Position numbers and translations under genes: made by a program. Below are positions 1,314 to 25,909 of a stretch of DNA of 64,000 bases, piece after piece. The first letter of the stretch is position 1. Every line of letters begins with the position of its first letter. Under the pieces are notes generated by a model that was given only the letters and a program-made list of their open reading frames with translations, searched no databases and had not been told where the DNA came from. The DNA comes from Alphaproteobacteria bacterium (GTDB taxonomy: Bacteria; Pseudomonadota; Alphaproteobacteria; MPNO01; UBA830): positions 1 through 64,000 of the forward strand of contig OZ219791.1 in the NCBI GenBank assembly GCA_964291215.2. The letters run 5' to 3'.

Positions 1314-1525
1314 AACGAGGCGGCCCTGGCTCTCAGCAAGGTCGCCGAGACCGTCATCAGCAGCGGGGCGGAGCTCGACGACCTTCTCGACGGCAACGCC
1401 GCCGACATTGTCCGCTAGCGCAGACGGCGGGGACGACCTCATGAACAAGGAGTTAACTGTGTCCGGTTGAAAGGCCCCGGCCTGTTCGGACGCCGACGGG
1501 GCCGACGCGCCGGTCGCGCGGAGCT

Positions 1526-2368
1526 TTAATCCGCCGGAGCGAGCGCGACCATGCCCATCCCCGTTGTCATTGGGGCATAGTAGTTGCGGTGCGCCCGGCT
1601 AACTCTGTTCGGCAGTGCGCCGCGCATAACCAGCCACATGATGAGTTCAACGGCCTCCGCTCCGGCCTGTTCCATGATGTCCAAGTGGGTCAGCGCGACC
1701 AGCCGATCCGGATCGGTCTCGATCCGGTCGAGGAAATCGTTGTCGAATTCCGGGTTGAGATGCCCGAACCGCGCTCCGTTGAGCTGGTGCGACATGCCGC
1801 CGGTGCCGAGAATCACCACCCGGGCGTCTTCGGGGTAGGCGGCAACCGCGCGGCCAATCGCCTCGCCGAGCTTCCAGCATCGCCGCGCGGTCGGCAGGGG
1901 ATGCTGAATGACATTGACCGCGATCGGGACCGTCTTCACCGACCAGCAGTCGGCATGGTCGAAGCAGAGATGCATGGGAACCATGAAGCCGTGCTCGACC
2001 GAGAGTTCCTGGCAAACCGAAATGTCGAACTCGTCATAGACAAGGGATTCGCACAGGTGCCACGAAAAGTCCGCGTCACCCGGAAAGTCCGGCAGCGGCC
2101 GGCGGCCCCAGCCTTCGTCACCGACCGGGTAGAGCCCGGCCGCGCCAACCGCAAATGTCGGGTACTTGTCGAAGAAGAACTCCGCGCCGTGGTCGTTATA
2201 GACCACGATCGCGATGTCGGGCTTCACCACGTCGCGCAGCCACGCCTTGACCGGCTCGTAGGCGTCGAACAGCGGCTTCCAGGCCGGTTCCTGGGTGCGG
2301 CCCTGGTCGTAGGCGACACCGATCGAGGGGACATGCGAGGTCCCGATCCCGGCAACGATCTTTGCCAT
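1526..2368 (-). CDS. ligB: Class III extradiol dioxygenase beta subunit (protocatechuate 4,5-dioxygenase LigB-like)
   Basis: MAKIVAGIGTSHVPSIG, YNDH, GTGGMSHQL, GAEAVELIMW motifs; directly downstream of a LigA-like gene. Confidence 0.88.
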   Translation of the reverse strand: MAKIVAGIGTSHVPSIGVAYDQGRTQEPAWKPLFDAYEPVKAWLRDVVKPDIAIVVYNDHGAEFFFDKYPTFAVGAAGLYPVGDEGWGRRPLPDFPGDADFSWHLCESLVYDEFDISVCQELSVEHGFMVPMHLCFDHADCWSVKTVPIAVNVIQHPLPTARRCWKLGEAIGRAVAAYPEDARVVILGTGGMSHQLNGARFGHLNPEFDNDFLDRIETDPDRLVALTHLDIMEQAGAEAVELIMWLVMRGALPNRVSRAHRNYYAPMTTGMGMVALAPAD

Positions 2369-2369
2369 T

Positions 2370-2732
2370 TCAGCGTGCTCCCGATGCGTTGCGGGTCGCC
2401 AGGAACTCCTCGTAGGTCTGGCCCCGCTGGTGCGCGCCAATCTGGTACAGGCCCTGCCCGATCACCGCGCCGATCTTGATGATCATGTAGATGTTGCCGC
2501 CGTGCTCATCCATCATCGCCCGCCAGTCGCGATCCCGAATGAGCTGCTTCTCGACCTCGGTCAGGTCCGAGCGGACCATGTAGGCCTCTTCATCGGCCTT
2601 GAACGCCTCACGGTTCTCGGCCTTGGTCATCGACATCGCGAACTTGTTCAGCCGGTAGCCCAGCCGCGACTCCGTGCTGTCGAATATCCGGGTGTCAGGT
2701 ATCGGCCGGTCCCTGTCGACTTGTGCTGCCAT
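2370..2732 (-). CDS. ligA: Extradiol dioxygenase alpha subunit (LigA-like)
   Basis: GYRLNKFAMSMTKAENREAFKADEEAY...GGNIYMIIK; 120 aa; adjacent to ligB. Confidence 0.88.
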   Translation of the reverse strand: MAAQVDRDRPIPDTRIFDSTESRLGYRLNKFAMSMTKAENREAFKADEEAYMVRSDLTEVEKQLIRDRDWRAMMDEHGGNIYMIIKIGAVIGQGLYQIGAHQRGQTYEEFLATRNASGAR

Positions 2733-2831
2733 GTGTCCGTCTCCTGCCTCTGCAGTTCAGTGCCGGGGGTCCGGGCAGTCCCCGGCGGGCTCCCGCGGCG
2801 GAGTTCCGACGGGCCCGCGCCTGCGCACGGT

Positions 2832-3587
2832 TCACTGATTGTATTTGCCGCCGTCGACATTAAATGTCTGCCCGGTCACGAAGTCGCTGTCCTCGCTTGC
2901 CAGGTACAGAAGCATTCCGACGAGGTCCTCGGACTTCATGTCCCGCTTGATGGCTCGAGTTTGCACGGTCGGCGCGCGGGCGACATGGAGATCGGGGTGA
3001 TTCTCGACGCCCTCGGTCATGGTTAGGCCCGGCGCGATGCAGTTGACCATGATGTTCTTGTCCCCGAACTCCCGCGAGGCCGAACGGGTAAACGCGATGA
3101 CCGCGCCCTTGGAGCTCACGTAGTGGGCCAGCCCGGGGCCGCCATAGTAGAAGGTGCCCGAGCTGATGTTGATGATCTTGCCCCGCTCGTTCCTGAGCAT
3201 GCTGGGAACGACGGCCTTGGTGGTCTGCAGCGTGCCGCGCATGTTCACCGTCATGACCCGGTCCCATTCCTCGTTCGATATCTGCATGATCGGGGTCAGT
3301 CGCAGTTCGGCAAAAAGCGCCGCGTTGTTGACCAAGATCTCGATGGGACCGAACACCGACTCGGCCGCCTCGACCAGCTCCGCGAGCGAACCGTCATCGG
3401 TCACGTCGGCAATCCTGCCGATGGCCGTGCCGCCGGCGCTCGTTATCTCGTCGACCACGCGGGACGGATCTGCGATATCCGAAACGACGACCCTGGCGCC
3501 TTCGGCGGCGAGCGCCTTTGCATAGGTTTCGCCGATGCCCTGGGCGGCACCGGTCACGACGGCGACTTTCCCGTCAAGTCTGCTCAT
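2832..3587 (-). CDS. Short-chain dehydrogenase/reductase
   Basis: TGAAQGIG, NNA, YVSSK, VDGG motifs; AGGAGG RBS upstream of the MSRLDGK start. Confidence 0.92.
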   Translation of the reverse strand: MSRLDGKVAVVTGAAQGIGETYAKALAAEGARVVVSDIADPSRVVDEITSAGGTAIGRIADVTDDGSLAELVEAAESVFGPIEILVNNAALFAELRLTPIMQISNEEWDRVMTVNMRGTLQTTKAVVPSMLRNERGKIINISSGTFYYGGPGLAHYVSSKGAVIAFTRSASREFGDKNIMVNCIAPGLTMTEGVENHPDLHVARAPTVQTRAIKRDMKSEDLVGMLLYLASEDSDFVTGQTFNVDGGKYNQ

Positions 3588-3767
3588 TTCCATTCCTCCT
3601 GTTTTGTTCGGACCGGCCTGACGGTTCAAATCCGGATGGTGATCCGTTTTCGCTCGTTGACTGCATTGATACAGGTCGCCGCCGCTGCGGGCCAACGCTG
3701 CTTGCGCTGGCGCGCACAGCCGCATCCACCGCCTGAATCGACGACGGGCTCGGGCCGCGGCCGGTCA

Positions 3768-5129
3768 TCAGGCCCCCAGCATCGTGTTGGGCAGGAACAT
3801 CGCGATTTCCGGGAACGCGACCAGCAGCGCGAGCATCACCGCCATCGCGAACCAGAACGGCCAGATTCCCCGGAATATCGTGCGCATTGGCACCTCCGGC
3901 GCGATCGACTTCACGACGAAGACATTGATGCCGACGGGCGGCGAAATCATGCCCATCTCGAGGACGATCACGACGATGATCCCGAACCAAATCAAGTCCC
4001 ACTGAAGCTGGGTCGCGAGCGCCATCACTACCGGGATGGTGAGAACGAGCATCGCGATTCCCTCGAGGAACGTCCCAAGAAACATGTAGATCAGGATGAC
4101 GACGATCAGGACGCCGACCTCGCCGATCGGCAGCGAGGTGAGGAAAGTCACCATGTCGCCGGCCAGCCCGGTGATCGACATGAACGGGATGAAGACAAAG
4201 GCGCCGATGATGATCAGGAAGACGGTTGCTGTCGCCTTCATGGTCTGCAGCACCACAGTCCGCAGCCGCGCGCCGTCGAGCGAACGCCTCTGGAGCGCGA
4301 CCAGAAACGTCAGGAACGCGCCCACCGCGGACGCCTCGACGGGGGTGAAGAAGCCGGTATACATCCCGCCAATGGTAACCCCGACCACAAGCGCGATCGG
4401 GATCGCGGCGGCGATCGAGCGGCGGCGCTCGCCGGGAGCCGCGCGGTTGCCGGGCGGCGCCGTTCCAGGGCGCAGCCGGACGGTGATCAACACCGCGCCT
4501 ATGAACAGCAGCGTAAGCACGATGCCGGGCACGATGCCAGCCATGAACAGCCGGCCGATCGACTGATCGGTCAGCACCGCGTAGATGATCATGCCGCCCG
4601 AAGGTGGGATCAGGAATCCCAGGGTGCCGCCGGCAGCGACCGCTCCGGTCGAGAGTTCGGGCGCGTACCTGTAGCGGTTCATCTCGGGCAGCGCGACGCG
4701 GCCCATCGTGACCGCGGAGGCAAGCGACGAGCCCGACAACGCCGCGAATCCCGCACACGCCGAGATCGTCGCCGAGGCGAGGCCGCCGCGGAAATGGCCG
4801 ATCCAGCTCTGGGCCGCGGCAAACAGGTCGCGCGACATGCCCGAGACGCCGGCGAGACTGCCCATGAGCACGAACATCGGGATGACGAGGAGGTTGAAGT
4901 TCGAGGCTACCTCGAACGCCTCGCCCGACAGGTTGGACATCGCCACGTTCCAGCCCCTAGCCCACGCCTGGTCGCTGGCCATGCCGAGGCCGATGAAGCG
5001 GTTAGCCTGGGCGAAGAAGGTGCCGGCCGTGCCGACAAGGATCATCGTGAGCGCGACCGAGAACCGGAGCGCTAGGAGCGCGAACAGGACCAGTAGTCCG
5101 ATCACGCCGATGATCGACATGCTCATCAT
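3768..5129 (-). CDS. dctM: TRAP transporter large permease (DctM)
   Basis: Highly hydrophobic; GGTLGFLIPPS and ISPPVGINVF motifs. Confidence 0.93.
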   Translation of the reverse strand: MMSMSIIGVIGLLVLFALLALRFSVALTMILVGTAGTFFAQANRFIGLGMASDQAWARGWNVAMSNLSGEAFEVASNFNLLVIPMFVLMGSLAGVSGMSRDLFAAAQSWIGHFRGGLASATISACAGFAALSGSSLASAVTMGRVALPEMNRYRYAPELSTGAVAAGGTLGFLIPPSGGMIIYAVLTDQSIGRLFMAGIVPGIVLTLLFIGAVLITVRLRPGTAPPGNRAAPGERRRSIAAAIPIALVVGVTIGGMYTGFFTPVEASAVGAFLTFLVALQRRSLDGARLRTVVLQTMKATATVFLIIIGAFVFIPFMSITGLAGDMVTFLTSLPIGEVGVLIVVILIYMFLGTFLEGIAMLVLTIPVVMALATQLQWDLIWFGIIVVIVLEMGMISPPVGINVFVVKSIAPEVPMRTIFRGIWPFWFAMAVMLALLVAFPEIAMFLPNTMLGA

Positions 5130-16496: not shown

Positions 16497-18425
16497 CCCT
16501 GATTTCGGCGGCAGAATCTCTCCAAGCGGTTGATCTTGTTGGTAAAATGGCGCGGAGGCGGTACTAAATTATTCCCCTGTAAAGGTATAATAGTCTGTTG
16601 ATATTAAAGGCCTGATCCTCTATATAAGTTGTCATGTATGTAGACATCGTCCCCAACCGCAATTCGCCCCCCGCCGTCCTCCTGCGCGAAGGATGGCGCG
16701 AGAACGGAAAAGTCAGGAAACGCACCATTGCCAATCTCTCCTCCTGGCCCATGGAGAAGGTGGAGACCCTACGGCGTCTCTTGAAGAACGAACCCCTGGT
16801 TAGCCGTACCGATGCCTTCGACATCGTCCGCTCCCTTCCTCATGGCCATGTGGCCGCGGTGCTGGGAACCCTGAAGAAACTGGGCCTGGACCGGCGGATC
16901 GACCCGAAGCCTTCTCCCGAGCGCGATCAGGTTCTCGCCCTGATCGTGGCGAGGATCCTGGCACCCGCTTCGAATCTGGCCCGAGGGCTGGCCGAGGCCA
17001 CCGCGGCGAGTACCTTGGGCGAGATCCTCGAGGCGGAAGGGGACGAGGACGACCTCTACGACGCCATGGACTGGCTCCTGGAGCGTCAGGAGAGGATCGA
17101 GCGGTCTCTGGCGAAGCGGCACCTCGAAGAGGGCTGTCTGGTGCTGTATGACCTGACCTCGGTGTGGATGGAGGGACGAAAGTGTCCCTTGGCCCGACGC
17201 GGGCACTCCCGGGATGGCAAGAAGGGCAAGCTGCAGATCGAGTTCGGCCTTCTGTGTGATCGGGACGGGTGTCCGGTGTCGGCGCGGGTGTTCCCCGGTA
17301 ACACGGCGGATCCGGCCACGGTGTCCTCACAGATCGCCACGCTGCGGGAGCGGTTCTCCTTTGCGAAGGTGGTACTGGTGGGGGACCGGGGGATGCTGAC
17401 CGAGGCGCGCATCCGCGAGGAGGTGAAGCCTGCGGGCCTGGACTGGATCAGCGCCTTGAGGGGACCGGCCATCCGTTCACTGGTGGAGGCCGGCGACATC
17501 GAAATGTCGCTCTTCGACGAGAGAGACCTGGTGGAGATCACCAGCAATGCGTATCCCGGCGAACGCCTCATGGTGTGCCGCAACCCGCTGCTGGCCGAAG
17601 ATCGGGCTCGCAAGCGCCAGGAACTGCTCGAGACCACCGAGGCCCTGCTCGAACCGATTGCCGCGGCGACCCGGCGCGAGAAACGCCGCCTCCGGGGGGC
17701 CGAGAAGATCGGAGAGCGGGTCGGCAAGGTCCTCGGCCGGTACAAGATGGCCAAGCACTTCACGTGGTCCGTCGACGAGGACGGGGCCTTCACCTGCCAG
17801 CGAAACGAGGCCTCCATCGCCGCCGAGGCCCGGCTCGACGGTCTCTGCGTAGTCCGCACCAGCCTGCCGGAGAGCGAACTCGACGGTCCCGGCACGGTGC
17901 GCGCCTGCAAGCGGTTGAGCTCCGTGAAACGGGCCTTCCGCAGTCTCAAGGACCTGAAAGTCCGTCCCGTCTACCGCCACACCGAGCCTCGGGTCCGGGC
18001 CCATGTCTTCCTGTGCATGCTCGCCTACTACGTCGAATGGCACATGCGTCAGAGATTGAAGCCCCTGCTGTTCGAGGACGAGGATGGCGAAGGCGCCGAG
18101 GCCCGGCGGCCGTCCATCGTGGCACCGGCAAGGGTATCGGAGAGCGCCCGGGCCAAGGCCGGCAGCAAGCGGAACGCTGACGGAGATCCGGTGCACAGTT
18201 TCCGCACGCTCCTCGGCGACCTTGCCACTCTCACCCGCAACACCGTGGCTCCCCGCCTTGCAGGCGCCGACCCCTTCCAGGTCACCACACGCCCCACCTC
18301 ACTTCAGAGAAAGGCCCTGGACCACCTCGGCGTGCGCCTGTAGCGTTCCCAGTAGCGACACACCCGATTCTCTCGAACGTCAATACATTCATAATGATAC
18401 GTCTTATTGTGACTGGAACTTCGGT
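16497..18425 (+). mobile_element. IS1634-family element
   Basis: Encloses the IS1634 transposase; short weak IRs (cctgatttcgg / ccgaagttcc), so ends are approximate. Confidence 0.7.
16634..18343 (+). CDS. IS1634-family transposase (open, but with apparent small in-frame deletions)
   Basis: MYVDIVPNRNSPPAVLLRE, LYDLTS, GHSRDGK, VGDRGM, RVRAHVFLCMLAYYV. Confidence 0.92.
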   Translation: MYVDIVPNRNSPPAVLLREGWRENGKVRKRTIANLSSWPMEKVETLRRLLKNEPLVSRTDAFDIVRSLPHGHVAAVLGTLKKLGLDRRIDPKPSPERDQVLALIVARILAPASNLARGLAEATAASTLGEILEAEGDEDDLYDAMDWLLERQERIERSLAKRHLEEGCLVLYDLTSVWMEGRKCPLARRGHSRDGKKGKLQIEFGLLCDRDGCPVSARVFPGNTADPATVSSQIATLRERFSFAKVVLVGDRGMLTEARIREEVKPAGLDWISALRGPAIRSLVEAGDIEMSLFDERDLVEITSNAYPGERLMVCRNPLLAEDRARKRQELLETTEALLEPIAAATRREKRRLRGAEKIGERVGKVLGRYKMAKHFTWSVDEDGAFTCQRNEASIAAEARLDGLCVVRTSLPESELDGPGTVRACKRLSSVKRAFRSLKDLKVRPVYRHTEPRVRAHVFLCMLAYYVEWHMRQRLKPLLFEDEDGEGAEARRPSIVAPARVSESARAKAGSKRNADGDPVHSFRTLLGDLATLTRNTVAPRLAGADPFQVTTRPTSLQRKALDHLGVRL

Positions 18426-20420: not shown

Positions 20421-20447
20421 GTCCCTCACTCGGTTTGCCGGGGCCGA

Positions 20448-20560
20448 TCAGAGCAACCCACGCTCGAGGAAGCTGACGGAGCCGGTCGGGGTGACGATCA
20501 GATGGTCGAGCAGCGTGACCTCGATGGTCTTGAGGGCGTCGCGGAGGCGGTCGGTCATGG
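20448..20560 (-). pseudogene. Duplicated 3' end of the radC-like gene
   Basis: MTDRLRDALKTIEVTLLDHLIV...ERGLL, near-identical to 25181-25293. Confidence 0.8.
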
Positions 20561-20850
20561 CAGCGCCGCGAGCATGGCCGTACCGGCCCTCGAAACGAGG
20601 CGCCGTCTTCCTGGCTGCCGAACCCGCTGAACCATATGTTCGACCGTTCCCGGGTTCCGCCGCCCTGGAGGCGCACGGCATGGGTGTCGAGCGTGATGCC
20701 GACGATCCGGCAGACGGTCTCGAAGTCGTCGAGGACATGGTCGTGCCATTCGTCGAAGAGGCCCTCGTCGCGATACCGGGCGCAGGCCTGCTCCTTCGCT
20801 GCGTCCGAAAGCTCGTCGATCGTGCAGACCGTGATCTCGATGACCTGGTC
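20561..20850 (-). pseudogene. Remnant of a conserved ICE/plasmid protein (often labelled antitoxin of toxin-antitoxin stability system)
   Basis: DELSDAAKEQA...DDFETVC..VG...VRLQGGGTR...IWFSGF.SQEDGASF pattern. Confidence 0.6.
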
Positions 20851-20972
20851 AGCCCTCCTGCGGACGGGGGTTGCGGGGGATGCCGGCCACGCGCACGAAG
20901 CGGACCGCCTCCCGGACGCGGCGGAGCGCGACGCGGTCGGCGCGGAACCAGTGGGCCGGCATGCGGGCAAAC

Positions 20973-21004
20973 CACGCAAAATGGGAACATTCCCATTTTG
21001 CGTG
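20973..21004. repeat. Palindrome with 15-bp arms at the RIT left end
   Basis: cacgcaaaatgggaa-ca-ttcccattttgcgtg. Confidence 0.9.
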
Positions 21005-21097
21005 TAATGGGAACCAGAGGACTATGGGAACCTTGATTCCCAACTCCCTGTGATCACGAGCTTATTCCGCTGATCAGGTTCACATAAGCATTCGAGC

Positions 21098-22090
21098 TCA
21101 GACGTTCGCGAGCATCGCCATCAGCTCGTCCTTCACGCCCGCGAAGCGTCCCTTGGCGAGACCCGGCGAACGCCACTCCGCGATAGTGCCAAGCTTCTCG
21201 GCGGGATCCGTGCGAAGGTATATCTCCGTGGTCTGGAGGTTCTGGTGCCCCAGCCATAGCGAGACCTTGCGGATGTCACAGGTCGCATTGAGAATCGTTA
21301 GGGCACAAGCGTGCCTCAGCACATGAGGGGTTACTTTCCGGCGCGCGATTGACGGTTCGGTCCGAGCTGCCGTCGCGACATGCAGCGCGAGCCGCCCGGC
21401 GAAGCCGCGCCGGGTCATTCCCCGTCCCATCGCGTTCAGGAACATGTGCCGGTCGGGAACCTCGGGGCGTATGGCGAGCCATGCCCCGAGCGCGTCAGCC
21501 GTTTCCCTCCAGAGCGGCAGGACGCAGGTTCGTCTTCCCTTGCCAGTGATCCGCACCTCGTCCAGCTGCGGCATCCTGACGTCATCGAGGGCGAGGCCGA
21601 CCAGTTCGGAGACTCGGAGCCCGGCATTGTAGGCGAGACACAGCATCGCCCGGTCCCGGGTTCCGGACCTGGTGGCGGCATCGGGAGCCTTCAGCAGCGC
21701 CTTCACCCCGTCCCGGTCGAGATGCCTGAGCGCGGGAATGTCGCCCTTCTTCTGCGGGATCGCGTGCACACGTGCAGCCATGTCGAGGCAGTCCGGGTGC
21801 CGGAACTCGATGAACTTGAAAAAGCTCTTGACCGCGGCCAGTCGGATGTTGCGGGTGCCGATGCCGTTGCCCCGATCCGCCTCGGGATGGTCGAGGAAGG
21901 CGAGGATGGTGTCGACATCGAGATGCCCGACCTCGAGCCTGCAGGGGCGGATGCCGTGCCTGTCTGCGGCAAAGATCGCGAGAAGCTTGAAGCTCGTGGC
22001 GTAGCTCTCGACGGTGTGCCGGCTGGCCCCCCGGTCACGGGGGAGATGCTCTCGCAGGAACGCAGCCAATGGAGATGCGAGTTGGGTCAT
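21098..22090 (-). CDS. ritC: RIT tyrosine recombinase C
   Basis: GLRVSEL, GKGRR, PHVLRH, WLGH, TTEIY; typical RitC N-terminus (FLREHL...ASRHTVESY). Confidence 0.9.
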   Translation of the reverse strand: MTQLASPLAAFLREHLPRDRGASRHTVESYATSFKLLAIFAADRHGIRPCRLEVGHLDVDTILAFLDHPEADRGNGIGTRNIRLAAVKSFFKFIEFRHPDCLDMAARVHAIPQKKGDIPALRHLDRDGVKALLKAPDAATRSGTRDRAMLCLAYNAGLRVSELVGLALDDVRMPQLDEVRITGKGRRTCVLPLWRETADALGAWLAIRPEVPDRHMFLNAMGRGMTRRGFAGRLALHVATAARTEPSIARRKVTPHVLRHACALTILNATCDIRKVSLWLGHQNLQTTEIYLRTDPAEKLGTIAEWRSPGLAKGRFAGVKDELMAMLANV

Positions 22091-23016
22091 GTCGTCTCCT
22101 TTCCTGCTGTTATGTGAAGTTTCTCGGCCGCCTCCGATACTTGGCGCATGAGGAGGGGCGTCGCCTCAAGGTACCAGTAGGTGTGCTTGACGCCGGTGTG
22201 TCCGAGGGTGGTCGACAGCGCGAGCATGTGCCGGCCGACATCCTTCCGGTTGGGGGAGAGGCTGCCTTCCAGTGCGGCGACGGCGAATCCGTGGCGAAGG
22301 TCGTGCAGCCTGGGGCCGGGCTCGCCGAGCCCGCCGCGAACTCCCGCCTTGCGCGCGAGCAGGATGAAGGTTCGGGTCAGATGTGTCGGTCGCAACGGCC
22401 GGCCGGATGCGAGAACGAACAGGTGTTCGCAGGGTCCGCCCTGCCGCTTGCGCACCGCGAGATAGTGTTCGAGGGCGCGGCGGGCGGTCTCGTGCAGGGG
22501 CACGAGGCGGTCCCTGCCGTTCTTGGCATTCCTGAACAGAAGCCCGTCCGGTTTCAGAGCCTCCAGCAACAGCCCGGTCGCTTCCGAGCGCCTCAGGCCG
22601 GTGCATGCCATGAGGCCGATGACATGATGGAAGGTCAGCGGGGTGAGCGATCCCGCTGGCGCCAGAGACAGCGCCTCCTTCATGATCTTCCGGATCTCCT
22701 CTGGCGATGGAATGCGCGGCGGCGGCCGGCGCCGTCGCGGCCTGTCGAGAGCCTCCCGGTGGGGCACCTCGTGACAGTCGTCCCCGACATGGAGGAAGAT
22801 GGCCATGGCGCGGACGATGTGCAGTCGCCTTCGGGCTTGGCCGACCGATGTTGCCGTGCGGGCCCAGTCCAGGACGTTGTCTGCACGCACGAACCTGTCG
22901 CCCCTGGCGTCGGCAAATTCGGCGTAACGCATCAGCATCCGTTCCTCGTCCCTGAAGGACAGGCCCAGCGCCTTCCTGCCGAGGACATAGCCCTTCGCGT
23001 GATCCGTCATGGTCAT
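22087..23016 (-). CDS. ritB: RIT tyrosine recombinase B
   Basis: TGLRRSEA, PRLHDLRHGFAV, LSTTLGH, TYWYL motifs. Confidence 0.9.
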   Translation of the reverse strand: MTMTDHAKGYVLGRKALGLSFRDEERMLMRYAEFADARGDRFVRADNVLDWARTATSVGQARRRLHIVRAMAIFLHVGDDCHEVPHREALDRPRRRRPPPRIPSPEEIRKIMKEALSLAPAGSLTPLTFHHVIGLMACTGLRRSEATGLLLEALKPDGLLFRNAKNGRDRLVPLHETARRALEHYLAVRKRQGGPCEHLFVLASGRPLRPTHLTRTFILLARKAGVRGGLGEPGPRLHDLRHGFAVAALEGSLSPNRKDVGRHMLALSTTLGHTGVKHTYWYLEATPLLMRQVSEAAEKLHITAGKETT

Positions 23017-24575
23017 GGGGCCTCTCCCTCGTACGGCCAGGGCTGAGCCAGTTCGCGAAGCATCCGGACATCGACGCGGGCATAGATCGCGGAGACGTCG
23101 GGAGAGCTGTGCCTGAGAAGGGCGCCGACGGCTTCAAGCGGCGTGCCGTTGCGCAGAAGGTTCGTTGCCGCCGAGTGTCTGAACAGGTGCGACGATGCCG
23201 GGCCGACGCCCCGGATGCCGGCCCGCCTGAGCGCGGGAGCGACGATCGAGGTGCCGATGCTCTTGGACGCCAAGGGGCGGCACGGCGCTCTGCAGCGCAG
23301 AAACACCTTCCTCTCGTCGCTGTGTGGCCGGGCCTTCAGGATGTAATCCCGCAGCGTATCTCCCACGTCCTGCGGCAGCGGCAGCTCCGCCTCCCGCCGC
23401 GACTTGCCGCCGACCCGGATGACGGCCCGGTCCCAGTCGATGTCGTCGAGAGCCAGCCCGGAGACGTCGCCGGCACAGAGTGCCAGCCGGGCGAGCAGCA
23501 GCAGGGCCGCCCTGTCGCGCAGCCCGATCGGCGTGGTCACGTCGCAGGTCGCGATCATGCGCTCGATGTCGTCCTGACCGACGTGCCGGGGCAGGCTCCC
23601 GCCCCGGAGCCTCGGCACCGTCGGGACCGCGTGGCCGAGTTCCGGCCGGCAGAGGCCGTTGTTCCCGAGGAAACGCAGGTACATCCGGAGCGCAATCGCC
23701 TCGCGTCCGACCTGATCGCGAGAGGCGGTTTCAAGGCGACCCAGGACCGTGTTCCGGACCCGGGCGACGTCATACGTTCCGGGGTCGCCGCCGAGAGCTG
23801 GGAGCAACGCGCGAAGACGCCGTTCGTACTGTTCGATGGACGAGTCCCTGAGGCCGCGGTGCTGTCGAAGCCAGTGCAGGAACACATCCAGATGCTCCCA
23901 ATGTTCCGCGTGGCGCTTCGGGACCTTCGGCGCCGGAATGACATTCCTGTCCGCCAAGAACGCGGCAAGAAGCCGGAGCAGATTCCCGGATTTGTCTGAA
24001 CCGACGAAGCCGGCAGGCCTGTCGAGGAACCCGGGATGAACGCAGGTGCAATCGTGGGCGAGAAAGCGGCGCCGAACGCGCTCGTCGGCCACCGCCAGGG
24101 GAATGTCCGACAGGTAGAGCCAGACGAAGAAGTGACGGCACAGGCTCCCGCTCTGAATGAGCACCGAACGCGCGTATCCCTGCATTTCCAGGGACTCCCG
24201 GAACTGCGCGGCGAGATGTCCTCCGGCCTTGATCTCCGGCGGCACCTTCGCGTGCCCGGTCTCGAGCAGATGCCGGAGGAGGCTGATCGCAAAATACCTT
24301 TGATCCTGTCCGGGCCTCTTCCCGATCTGATGCCGGCCCGGGCAATGGCATACATGGCGCATGAAACGGTCAACGAGGCGGATGTCGAATGTTTCGAGGC
24401 CCAGCCCGCTGGCCGCCAGCCAGACCGCGACATGCTTGGCCGTGCTGATCAGCCTGCCGATATTCCTGTCCGAATGGCCAAGGCTTTCCAGGCGATTTGC
24501 GTAGCCCCCGACAGCACAAGCATCGCGCTCCGGACCCACATCGGTGAGCGACGGGCTGAGTGTTTTGGTGGTCAT
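23013..24575 (-). CDS. ritA: RIT tyrosine recombinase A (catalytic Arg apparently replaced by Cys)
   Basis: GLRDRAALLLLARLALCAGDV, SHLFRHS, LLRH, SAIYARVD. Confidence 0.88.
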   Translation of the reverse strand: MTTKTLSPSLTDVGPERDACAVGGYANRLESLGHSDRNIGRLISTAKHVAVWLAASGLGLETFDIRLVDRFMRHVCHCPGRHQIGKRPGQDQRYFAISLLRHLLETGHAKVPPEIKAGGHLAAQFRESLEMQGYARSVLIQSGSLCRHFFVWLYLSDIPLAVADERVRRRFLAHDCTCVHPGFLDRPAGFVGSDKSGNLLRLLAAFLADRNVIPAPKVPKRHAEHWEHLDVFLHWLRQHRGLRDSSIEQYERRLRALLPALGGDPGTYDVARVRNTVLGRLETASRDQVGREAIALRMYLRFLGNNGLCRPELGHAVPTVPRLRGGSLPRHVGQDDIERMIATCDVTTPIGLRDRAALLLLARLALCAGDVSGLALDDIDWDRAVIRVGGKSRREAELPLPQDVGDTLRDYILKARPHSDERKVFLRCRAPCRPLASKSIGTSIVAPALRRAGIRGVGPASSHLFRHSAATNLLRNGTPLEAVGALLRHSSPDVSAIYARVDVRMLRELAQPWPYEGEAP

Positions 24576-24705
24576 GGGTTTTCTCCTGTCAGTGTCAAAA
24601 CCGACAGGAGTGGATCAGATTCTTATGTGAACCTGATCAGCGGAATAGGCTCGTGATCACAGGGAGTTGGGAATCAAGGTTCCCATAATCCTCTGGTTCC
24701 CATTA

Positions 24706-25097
24706 CACGCACCGGAATCCGCGACGAAGCCGTCCGCACAGGCCACGAAGTGGCGGCTCGCGGAGATCGCCCATGTCCCGGCGGGCGCGGCGTCGAGGAA
24801 CGCGCCCAGCGTGATTGCGCGCTCGTCGAAGGGGACGCCGGCGAAGAGGCGCTCCCATTCCCGCTCGCTCCGGGCGAAACGGCGGTTCCGGTATTTCGGA
24901 TGGCGGAGCGCGTAGTCCGGCGCCCAGCCGAACGCTTCGAGCGCGGCGGCGAGTTCGTCGATGAAGACGCCGTTCACCGACGGCCGGTCGAACAGGCGGC
25001 GGATGACGGCAGCGGCCTCGTGGGTCGGCACGCCGGCAATCGCGGAAATCGCGGACGGGCCGCACTTCGTGGCGCGGCCGGTGATCCGGTGGAGCAT
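24706..25097 (-). pseudogene. 5' part of a hypothetical gene split by the RIT (3' part 20849-20972)
   Basis: Removing the RIT at the CACGCA repeat restores a 516-nt ORF reading ...VADSGAW-FARMPAH... Confidence 0.75.
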
Positions 25098-25180
25098 GGC
25101 GGTCTCCGGGCTGGGTGGCGGGGGTCGGCCCGACGCGGCCGGGGGCGCACCGGGGAGATCCATCGGTTCGCCGGGTCCTT

Positions 25181-25909
25181 TCAGAGCAACCCACGCTCGT
25201 GGAAGGTGACCGAGCCGGTCGGCGTGACGATCAGATGGTCGAGCAGCGTCACTTTGATGGTCTTCAGCGCGTCGCGGAGGCGGTCGGTCATGGCGATGTC
25301 GGCTCTTGATGGTTCCGGGTTGCCCGACGGGTGGTTGTGGACCGCGATGACCGCGCTGGCCTGAAGCTCCAGACAGCGGATGCAGACCTCCCGGGGATAG
25401 GTGTGGCAGACGGAGCCTTTCTGGAGGCACTCGTCGGCAATGAGGAGGTTGTTGCGGTTCAGGTAGAGGATGTGGAACTGCTCGACCTCGCGGTGGCCGG
25501 CGAGGGTGCGGCAGTACTCGACCACCCTGTCGTAGCTTGCGAGGGGCGGGCGCAGGGTGTCGGGCATTTCGGCCCGCGCCATGCGGATGGCGAGCGCTTC
25601 GGCGGCCTTAAAGGCGGCGATGGCGTCTCCCGGCAGGCCCGGCACGGTGCGCAGCCGGTCCGGCCGTGCTGCGAGCGCGCGCGGCGCCGCGCCGAAGGTA
25701 TCCAGCAATGCGCGGGCGAGCGCCCCGGCATCGTCCACCGGCGGGCGCCCGGAGAGCAGCAGTTCGAGCAGGTCGCGGTCGTCGACCGCCTCGCGCCCGG
25801 CGCGGAGGAAGCGGCGCTGGAGGCGGTCGGCGGTCTTGCGGATCGAGGCCGGCGCTGCGGGCATGTCGTGCAGCAGCATGTCGTCGAGAGCCGGCAGGGA
25901 ATCGGGCAT
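25181..25909 (-). CDS. radC: RadC/JAB-domain protein
   Basis: ELLELLL-like N-terminus, YPREV, HNHPSGNPEPSRAD, LLDHLIV. Confidence 0.9.
   Translation of the reverse strand: MPDSLPALDDMLLHDMPAAPASIRKTADRLQRRFLRAGREAVDDRDLLELLLSGRPPVDDAGALARALLDTFGAAPRALAARPDRLRTVPGLPGDAIAAFKAAEALAIRMARAEMPDTLRPPLASYDRVVEYCRTLAGHREVEQFHILYLNRNNLLIADECLQKGSVCHTYPREVCIRCLELQASAVIAVHNHPSGNPEPSRADIAMTDRLRDALKTIKVTLLDHLIVTPTGSVTFHERGLL

Follow-up and report, generated by a model that had tools for sequence, protein, structure and literature searches.

The window analyzed here, the first 64,000 nucleotides of contig OZ219791.1 (GenBank assembly GCA_964291215.2) from an Alphaproteobacteria bacterium, contains a RIT (recombinase in trio) element that interrupts a gene for a small protein (Table 1). 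Between its terminal inverted repeats (IRs) lie three adjacent tyrosine recombinase genes on the same strand, ritA, ritB and ritC, with ATGA at both overlaps (RIT genes overlap by 4-8 bp), and all three products match PF00589. Only these three PF00589 genes lie between the IRs, and the gene sets of strand-biased circularizing elements (SE; IntA-Tfp-IntB-Srap) and Tn554 (TnpA-TnpB-TnpC) are not matched. An earlier reading made from the letters alone (the sequence-only reading) had called the element a RIT, and its gene order, overlaps and IRs bear this out. It is an ordinary RIT whose junction had been correctly resolved, and the 6-bp cores at its ends are a moving record rather than a fixed lox spacer.

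Junction anatomy and empty sites

The insert of 3,733 bp comprises a core, a 20-bp palindrome, an inverted core, an IR, ritABC and the second IR, and it lies beside the target's own 6 bp; from IR to IR the element measures 3,701 bp, and it is present in one copy in its genome. The three copies of CACGCA, the outer two direct and the inner one inverted, are confirmed to the base, and the palindrome pairs at 9/9 positions around a 2-bp centre. The IR length of 89 bp given earlier was slightly off, as the repeats span 87 bp with 3 mismatches, or 93 bp including the core. The palindrome arms are indeed copies of the IR arm motif, since arm-like 11-mers found in the IR also occur in both palindrome halves. 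The core-palindrome-core' segment can fold as a hairpin, and the predicted circle junction is self-complementary at 198 of 206 positions. Palindromes as perfect as this one (30/32) are not rare by chance in this repeat-rich genome, where 39 were found, and hence what is not due to chance is its position and recurrence, not its existence alone.

Table 1. Features of the RIT insertion and its target gene in the window.
Feature	Position	Strand	Remarks
Target gene, 3' part	20849..20972	-	encodes a small protein without a Pfam match; lies downstream of radC; has an uninterrupted paralog and 119 relatives
Outer core c1 (CACGCA)	20973..20978	+	first bases of the 3,733-bp insertion; element-carried, judging by related copies
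20-bp palindrome P	20979..20998	.	two back-to-back copies of the IR arm motif; missing from empty sites
Inner inverted core c2	20999..21004	-	carried; equals an earlier target in related copies
Terminal IR, ritC side (87 bp)	21005..21091	+	arm motif at offset 1, again at 18, and in inverted form at ~73
ritC, tyrosine recombinase	21098..22090	-	330 aa
ritB, tyrosine recombinase	22087..23016	-	309 aa; ATGA overlaps with ritA and ritC
ritA, tyrosine recombinase	23013..24575	-	520 aa; Cys367 at the first catalytic Arg position of close relatives
Terminal IR, ritA side	24619..24705	-	
Far core c3 (CACGCA)	24706..24711	+	6 bp belonging to the target (Gly-Ala-Trp codons); identical letters in empty-site contigs
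Target gene, 5' part	24706..25097	-	starts MLHRITG

Deletion of 20973-24705 yields a 516-nt open reading frame that reads DSGAWFARM across the junction, so that the in-frame restoration proposed by the sequence-only reading holds. A paralog in the same genome (C1, ~819.1 kb) also reads DSGAWFARM, with a single core and no palindrome, and its core CAGGCA differs from CACGCA by one synonymous base; a second, more diverged paralog (C1, ~463 kb) reads DSADS at the junction. Contigs of two public runs (X21 and X22) carry an empty site with CACGCA itself, and these are likely other alleles rather than excision products, as other positions differ and the depth exceeds that of the element ~10-fold and ~2-fold. 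The claim that the palindrome came with the element would have fallen if uninterrupted homologs contained it or did not read DSGAWF; they have one core, lack the palindrome and read through, and the palindrome is thus element-borne. Among the 119 relatives of the target gene, the junction pattern was matched in 29, of which 8 read DSGAW. Identical relatives occupy different sites. Two elements 95% identical to the window element (L001 and L002) hit this codon in members of this gene family, and all three of their cores read CAGGCG, which differs from CACGCA at wobble positions only.

Catalytic motifs are present in RitB and RitC. At codon 367 of ritA (23475-23477) the window copy has Cys, where 14 of the 15 other loci checked have Arg and one gave no match, and the X21 and X22 contigs show no alternative letter at this codon. 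This is probably a real lesion of the window copy, and its RitA is likely impaired. RitC of the window element was not found in viral contigs with a single-protein query.

Spread of the layout among RIT loci

RIT loci were gathered from GTDB genomes and from IMG/VR and JGI contigs. The 276 loci included 225 with 230 recombinase trios, 56 of which had no IR pair, many of them on short loci or contig ends; the other 174 consisted of 8 false IR calls, 3 long repeats, 132 trios with a palindrome (20 bp with at least 7/9 pairs, 6 bp outside one IR) and 31 without. Once 4 mis-registered, 2 truncated and 3 duplicate rows were dropped, 123 distinct insertions in 84 element clusters remained, all with the layout core, 20-bp palindrome, inverted core, IR-ritABC-IR and core. 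Hence the comparison with other copies that the sequence-only reading had called for shows the palindrome to be family-wide. It lies on the ritA side in 67 insertions and on the ritC side in 56, and the same criterion of at least 7/9 pairs was reached by 0/123 control segments of 20 bp beyond the far core and by 0/123 before the outer core.

The cores themselves vary. All three are the same in 37 of the 123 insertions, c1 equals c3 in 21, c1 equals c2 in 19, c2 equals c3 in 11 and all differ in 35, so that at least one core differs in 86; the outer cores of L131 and L211 differ at 5/6 bases. The likeness among the three sites is exactly 6 bp long, at 68-94% inside versus 14-43% in the target flanks, and the resemblance of the target flanks to the element arms is weak (11-43% per base). 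The 84 clusters have 78 different far cores.

The second RIT of the window genome (L050/L051; G000 C1:452374-456097 and C2:1174853-1178532) has the same three-core anatomy with the core TCGCAG. Its two copies are 99.97% identical and differ in which end bears the palindrome together with a shared 73-bp flank. One of the inner cores is the core of an empty paralog. The ritA-side IR of the C2 copy is cut by a repeat that has many copies in the genome.

Several variants were also seen. Some RITs of 5.1-5.8 kb hold ~1.4-2 kb of extra DNA inside the IRs (L131, L133, L134, L160; L162, L177, L178, L184). Four RITs with no palindrome next to them, at L106 (6644-9340), L012, L135 and L143, abut one short motif ~7 bp from the IR; at L106 this motif is the end of a unit made of an integrase and an IS91-type transposase, and an orphan palindrome lies ~50 bp past the other end. 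In L009, L094 and L112, and in L003 and L151, the palindrome or the same flank stands at both ends, by recombination between opposite copies or as an assembly artefact. Several clusters (L041, L165, L195, L209-L212, L221, L222, L226, L228 and L229) lie at the same G-R-K codons of genes that we take to encode IS66 transposases.

Origin of the three cores

In the pair test on flanks at least 90% alike (n = 18), c3 was closer in 12 cases and c1 in 1, with 5 ties, and the sole exception is the inversion pair L005/L006 discussed below. Empty alleles were sought for 67 insertions with c1 unlike c3 and found for 22. Where the empty allele had at most 3 mismatches over 60 flank positions, all three (3/3) agreed with c3, and within 6 mismatches the count was 6 for c3 versus 4 for c1. 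The empty allele of L131 has identical flanks and equals c3, with c1 off at 5/6 positions, and a paralog of the L209 target reads the c3 peptide GPQDW. For L038, no empty allele was found in G191 besides the insertion site itself.

These comparisons show that the 6 bp of the far core belong to the target, and that the two palindrome-side cores are carried and match earlier targets. The inserted DNA is thus c1-P-c2'-body, and the direct repeats represent no duplication of the target and no constant address of the lox kind. A target-site duplication was rejected: c3 comes from the target, and c1 is unlike it in 65/123 insertions. The idea that the target could supply either outer core was abandoned once L131 and L209 both resolved to c3. 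The lox-like left site with identical cores that the sequence-only reading described is likewise not general (37/123 identical; 5/6 differences between the outer cores of L131 and L211), nor do all three cores change with the target, a point it had proposed to check.

Where copies are nearly identical, the carried cores can be followed from one insertion to another. Under a shift rule, in which the new c1 is the old c2, the new c2 is the old c3 and the side is flipped, 7 parent-daughter pairs of near-identical copies are linked, and in three of these (L131 to L134, L212 to L211 and L182 to L181) the parent's three cores all differ. A 'stay' rule fits 3 pairs, of which two also fit the shift and one joins elements of different length; in terms of near-identical daughters, 5 fit only the shift, 2 (L133 and L160) fit either rule and 0 fit only the stay. 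G425 and G1267 each hold four identical copies that share cores. Of 44 pairs, 10 share the predicted two-core circle with the right IR adjacency, 3 have it flipped and 31 are uninformative. At the first core base, c1 alone agrees with c3 in 12 insertions and c2 alone in 0 (8 to 0 when one per cluster is taken), which is as expected if c1 was the exchange partner and identity was sensed beside the cut. The three identical cores of the window element are most likely explained by recent insertions into one and the same allele of this multi-copy gene.

A proposed circle with two mirror-image sites

We propose, with a probability of roughly 0.7, that RIT elements move as a circle whose junction, IR-core-palindrome-core'-IR, forms two mirror-image tyrosine-recombinase sites, and that the carried cores are leftovers of earlier targets. 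This rests on what is seen in genomes: an anatomy that recurs among RITs, a far core that stems from the target, cores shared by different copies, and side changes by both routes. In tyrosine recombinases the two cuts are usually staggered, one at each 5' edge of a spacer of 6-8 bp. In excision the crossover would fall where the outer core meets the palindrome and where the far core meets the target, and the circle would keep the inner core and the core of the last target (c2 and c3). Integration would then use the IR-side edge of one carried core, which would become the new outer core while the target kept its own. Use of the older core would flip the element and shift the cores as in the shift rule, with the target supplying the new c3. 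Mismatches would be tolerated except, mostly, at the first core base, as for IntDOT, and in-place inversion between the inner and far cores would be a less frequent side reaction.

The side on which the palindrome lies bears directly on this proposal. Asymmetric palindromes served as orientation tracers among near-identical sets. In 8 of these sets (L001/2, L162/178, L181/182, L187-189, L055/56, L209/210/212, L085/122 and L117-119) the palindrome changes side with no change in its orientation to the body, which is the outcome predicted for a single circle that can integrate by either of its cores. Its side therefore appears mostly to reflect the core used for insertion and not inversion (8 sets vs 3). 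Inversion does occur: L005 and L006 occupy the same site with host flanks 99.9-100% shared and a fixed palindrome, and the RIT is inverted exactly between the cores. The inversion of the body between inverted cores that the sequence-only reading foresaw thus exists as a minority route, which could be host recombination, and the excision of the whole unit that it foresaw fits the links between copies. The L005 and L006 elements (1355-4773 in each) are nested in the HDLRH codons of the ritB of a relative of the window element, and the window ritB carries the same 6-bp core as an empty site.

Several results weigh against the proposal. All steps of the mechanism are read from genome comparisons, and no circle, circle junction or recombination product was found among the 123 insertions or the contig joints of X21 and X22, which as contigs cannot show absence; a loose end that follows 24711 in X21 comes from the left junction placed on the right IR and does not represent an inverted form. 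Three near-identical sets (L005/6, L010/11 and L192) and two comparisons at 95-96% identity, including that of the window element with L001/L002, show the palindrome reversed with respect to the body. A 75% flank threshold weakens the pair test to 27:17 with 17 ties (n = 61), and empty alleles within 12 of 60 flank mismatches give 12 for c3, 9 for c1 and 1 tie (n = 22), where most of the calls that favour c1 are wobble differences in one gene family. L113-L115 and L210 have no parent among the compared copies under the shift rule, and since the copies are related and few, p-values are overstated. By eye, ~9 true IR pairs have no palindrome (from the 31 trios and one mis-registered row; the rest of these 32 rows comprise 5 with a degenerate, 19-bp or missed palindrome, 1 with two, and others with false IRs or short flanks), and 3 elements have a palindrome at both ends. 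The window copy's own RitA is without the first catalytic Arg.

Four other explanations can be weighed against the same data. In the scheme closest to the sequence-only reading, three identical cores act like lox sites for Cre, the body inverts, the unit excises and inversion accounts for the two palindrome sides. The identical cores of the window element and of 37/123 insertions agree with it, as do the in-place inversion of L005/L006 with its breakpoints at cores, the flipped palindromes of L010/L011 and L192, and the opposite ends at which the L050/L051 copies carry the palindrome and flank. Against this, 86/123 insertions have at least one differing core, with up to 5/6 between c1 and c3, and inversion across an IR of 31-93 bp plus the core may be host recombination. 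Since the palindrome moves with the body in the 8 body-fixed sets, this scheme is ruled out as the sole mechanism, and we consider it unlikely overall. A phage-like fixed address, in which one constant core finds an identical one, is scarcely credible: all copies of some elements do have the same core three times (e.g., L039/L047/L048 and L055/L056), but within the same target codons the window element and L001/L002 have different wobble bases, and identical elements in one genome have different cores in G1267 and G425, for which this explanation is ruled out.

Double-strand exchange of the Tn916 type would leave heteroduplex cores, so that after replication either outer core could be the target's. 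Mismatched cores are common, Tn916 Int is described as needing no homology of coupling sequences in the part of PMC5812530 consulted, and 9/22 empty-allele calls favour c1 once distant alleles are included; yet near-identical targets give the far core 12 to 1, with L005/L006 as the exception, and the closest alleles give it 3/3, which leaves this route quite improbable. We attach very little probability to an exit of the element in linear form with hairpin ends made at the palindrome. RITs of Sphingobium MH were enriched in exonuclease-resistant DNA with no circle junction, and hairpin intermediates were suggested, according to the portion of PMC5737581 seen. The hairpin fold of core-P-core' would suit this too, but a palindrome present at one end only, which switches between the ritA and ritC sides in fixed orientation to the body, needs joined ends, and a circle junction that is 198/206 self-complementary could hide from PCR and short reads.

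Returning to the circle with two sites, its strandedness can be considered. With the usual tyrosine recombinase geometry the shift path would cut the same strand in both steps, and together with the self-complementarity of the junction this makes a folded single strand possible. One strand would be copied out as a circle and fold, IR on IR and core on core with the palindrome as the hairpin tip, into a single site; all cuts would fall on one strand, in the palindrome arm at excision and in the IR arm at integration, and every hop would have to flip the element and shift a three-slot log of its last insertion sites. A double-stranded circle that chooses either core fits equally well, and we regard the single-stranded version as a tentative possibility that is probably not correct. 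If true, it would make RIT a transposon with hairpin chemistry like that of integrons and CTX, and would explain why it has several recombinases.

Target gene and its neighborhood

The target protein (20849-20972 plus 24706-25097; L276:2685-3212) has CGP-x-A near its start and H-x-V-A...DS near its end, motifs that we take to be reminiscent of papain-like (C39-type) peptidases. A diverged homolog (P0032) continues into the end of a RIT (DSGACNGNQRI), which points to a further insertion at this codon. The 3' end of radC lies at 20430-20561, and a second partial copy, 90% alike, lies beyond the target gene at 25163-25294. A DDE transposase gene is located upstream at 16634-18343.

Relation to known systems and significance

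RIT elements as described in the portions of PMC3414803 and PMC2864759 consulted likewise have three adjacent tyrosine recombinase genes with 4-bp overlaps, measure ~3.5 kb, end in IRs, insert into genes of mobile regions and are flanked by a palindromic sequence. The former reports IRs of 28-9 bp and an overlapping palindrome that 'do not fit well' usual sites, compared with 87-bp IRs in the window element, and in that portion there are no 6-bp cores, side switching or mechanism. Transposition of a RIT has yet to be reproduced in the laboratory, according to the part of PMC10214605 seen, where the SE/Tn554 group also has several tyrosine recombinases and no target duplication, and where the donor 6-bp spacer is carried to one side with the target 6 bp on the other, which matches related RITs. 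As far as that source shows, SE/Tn554 have one crossover site and one footprint, whereas in RITs the palindrome lies between two inverted sites, two cores are carried, and insertions occur in either orientation. A strand-biased circle and a donor site that is not left empty are further traits of the SE/Tn554 group. CTXphi attP also has two inverted sites in its circular form that can be folded into one site in single-stranded DNA, but it uses host XerC/D and fixed dif sites 90 bp apart and is without excision (PMC4246890, in part), whereas RITs have their own recombinases, a 20-bp spacer and variable cores. The window element in particular has its target inside a coding gene, not at dif, and uses its own recombinases in place of XerC/D.

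Recombination with mismatched overlap regions is described for Tn916 coupling sequences and for CTnDOT IntDOT in the parts of PMC5812530 and PMC2817482 consulted, and IntDOT needs identity only at the first cleavage base (PMC2817482), as core position 1 of RITs suggests for these elements. On the same partial sources Tn916 and CTnDOT have one att site, whereas in RITs the target core always comes to lie at the same end, and the window element contains no excisionase or transfer genes. The two-site model was not found in the portions of the RIT literature searched; Ricker 2013, its supplements or theses may describe part of it.

The anatomy fixes the true ends of the element, names three crossover sites and predicts the sequences of the circle and its products base by base, and the mechanism is therefore directly testable with marked cores. 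The near-perfect 206-bp palindrome suggests why circle junctions were missed, and the carried cores allow insertion events to be ordered among copies, as in G425 and G1267. RITs are widespread, and the proposal provides a testable model for how the family moves.

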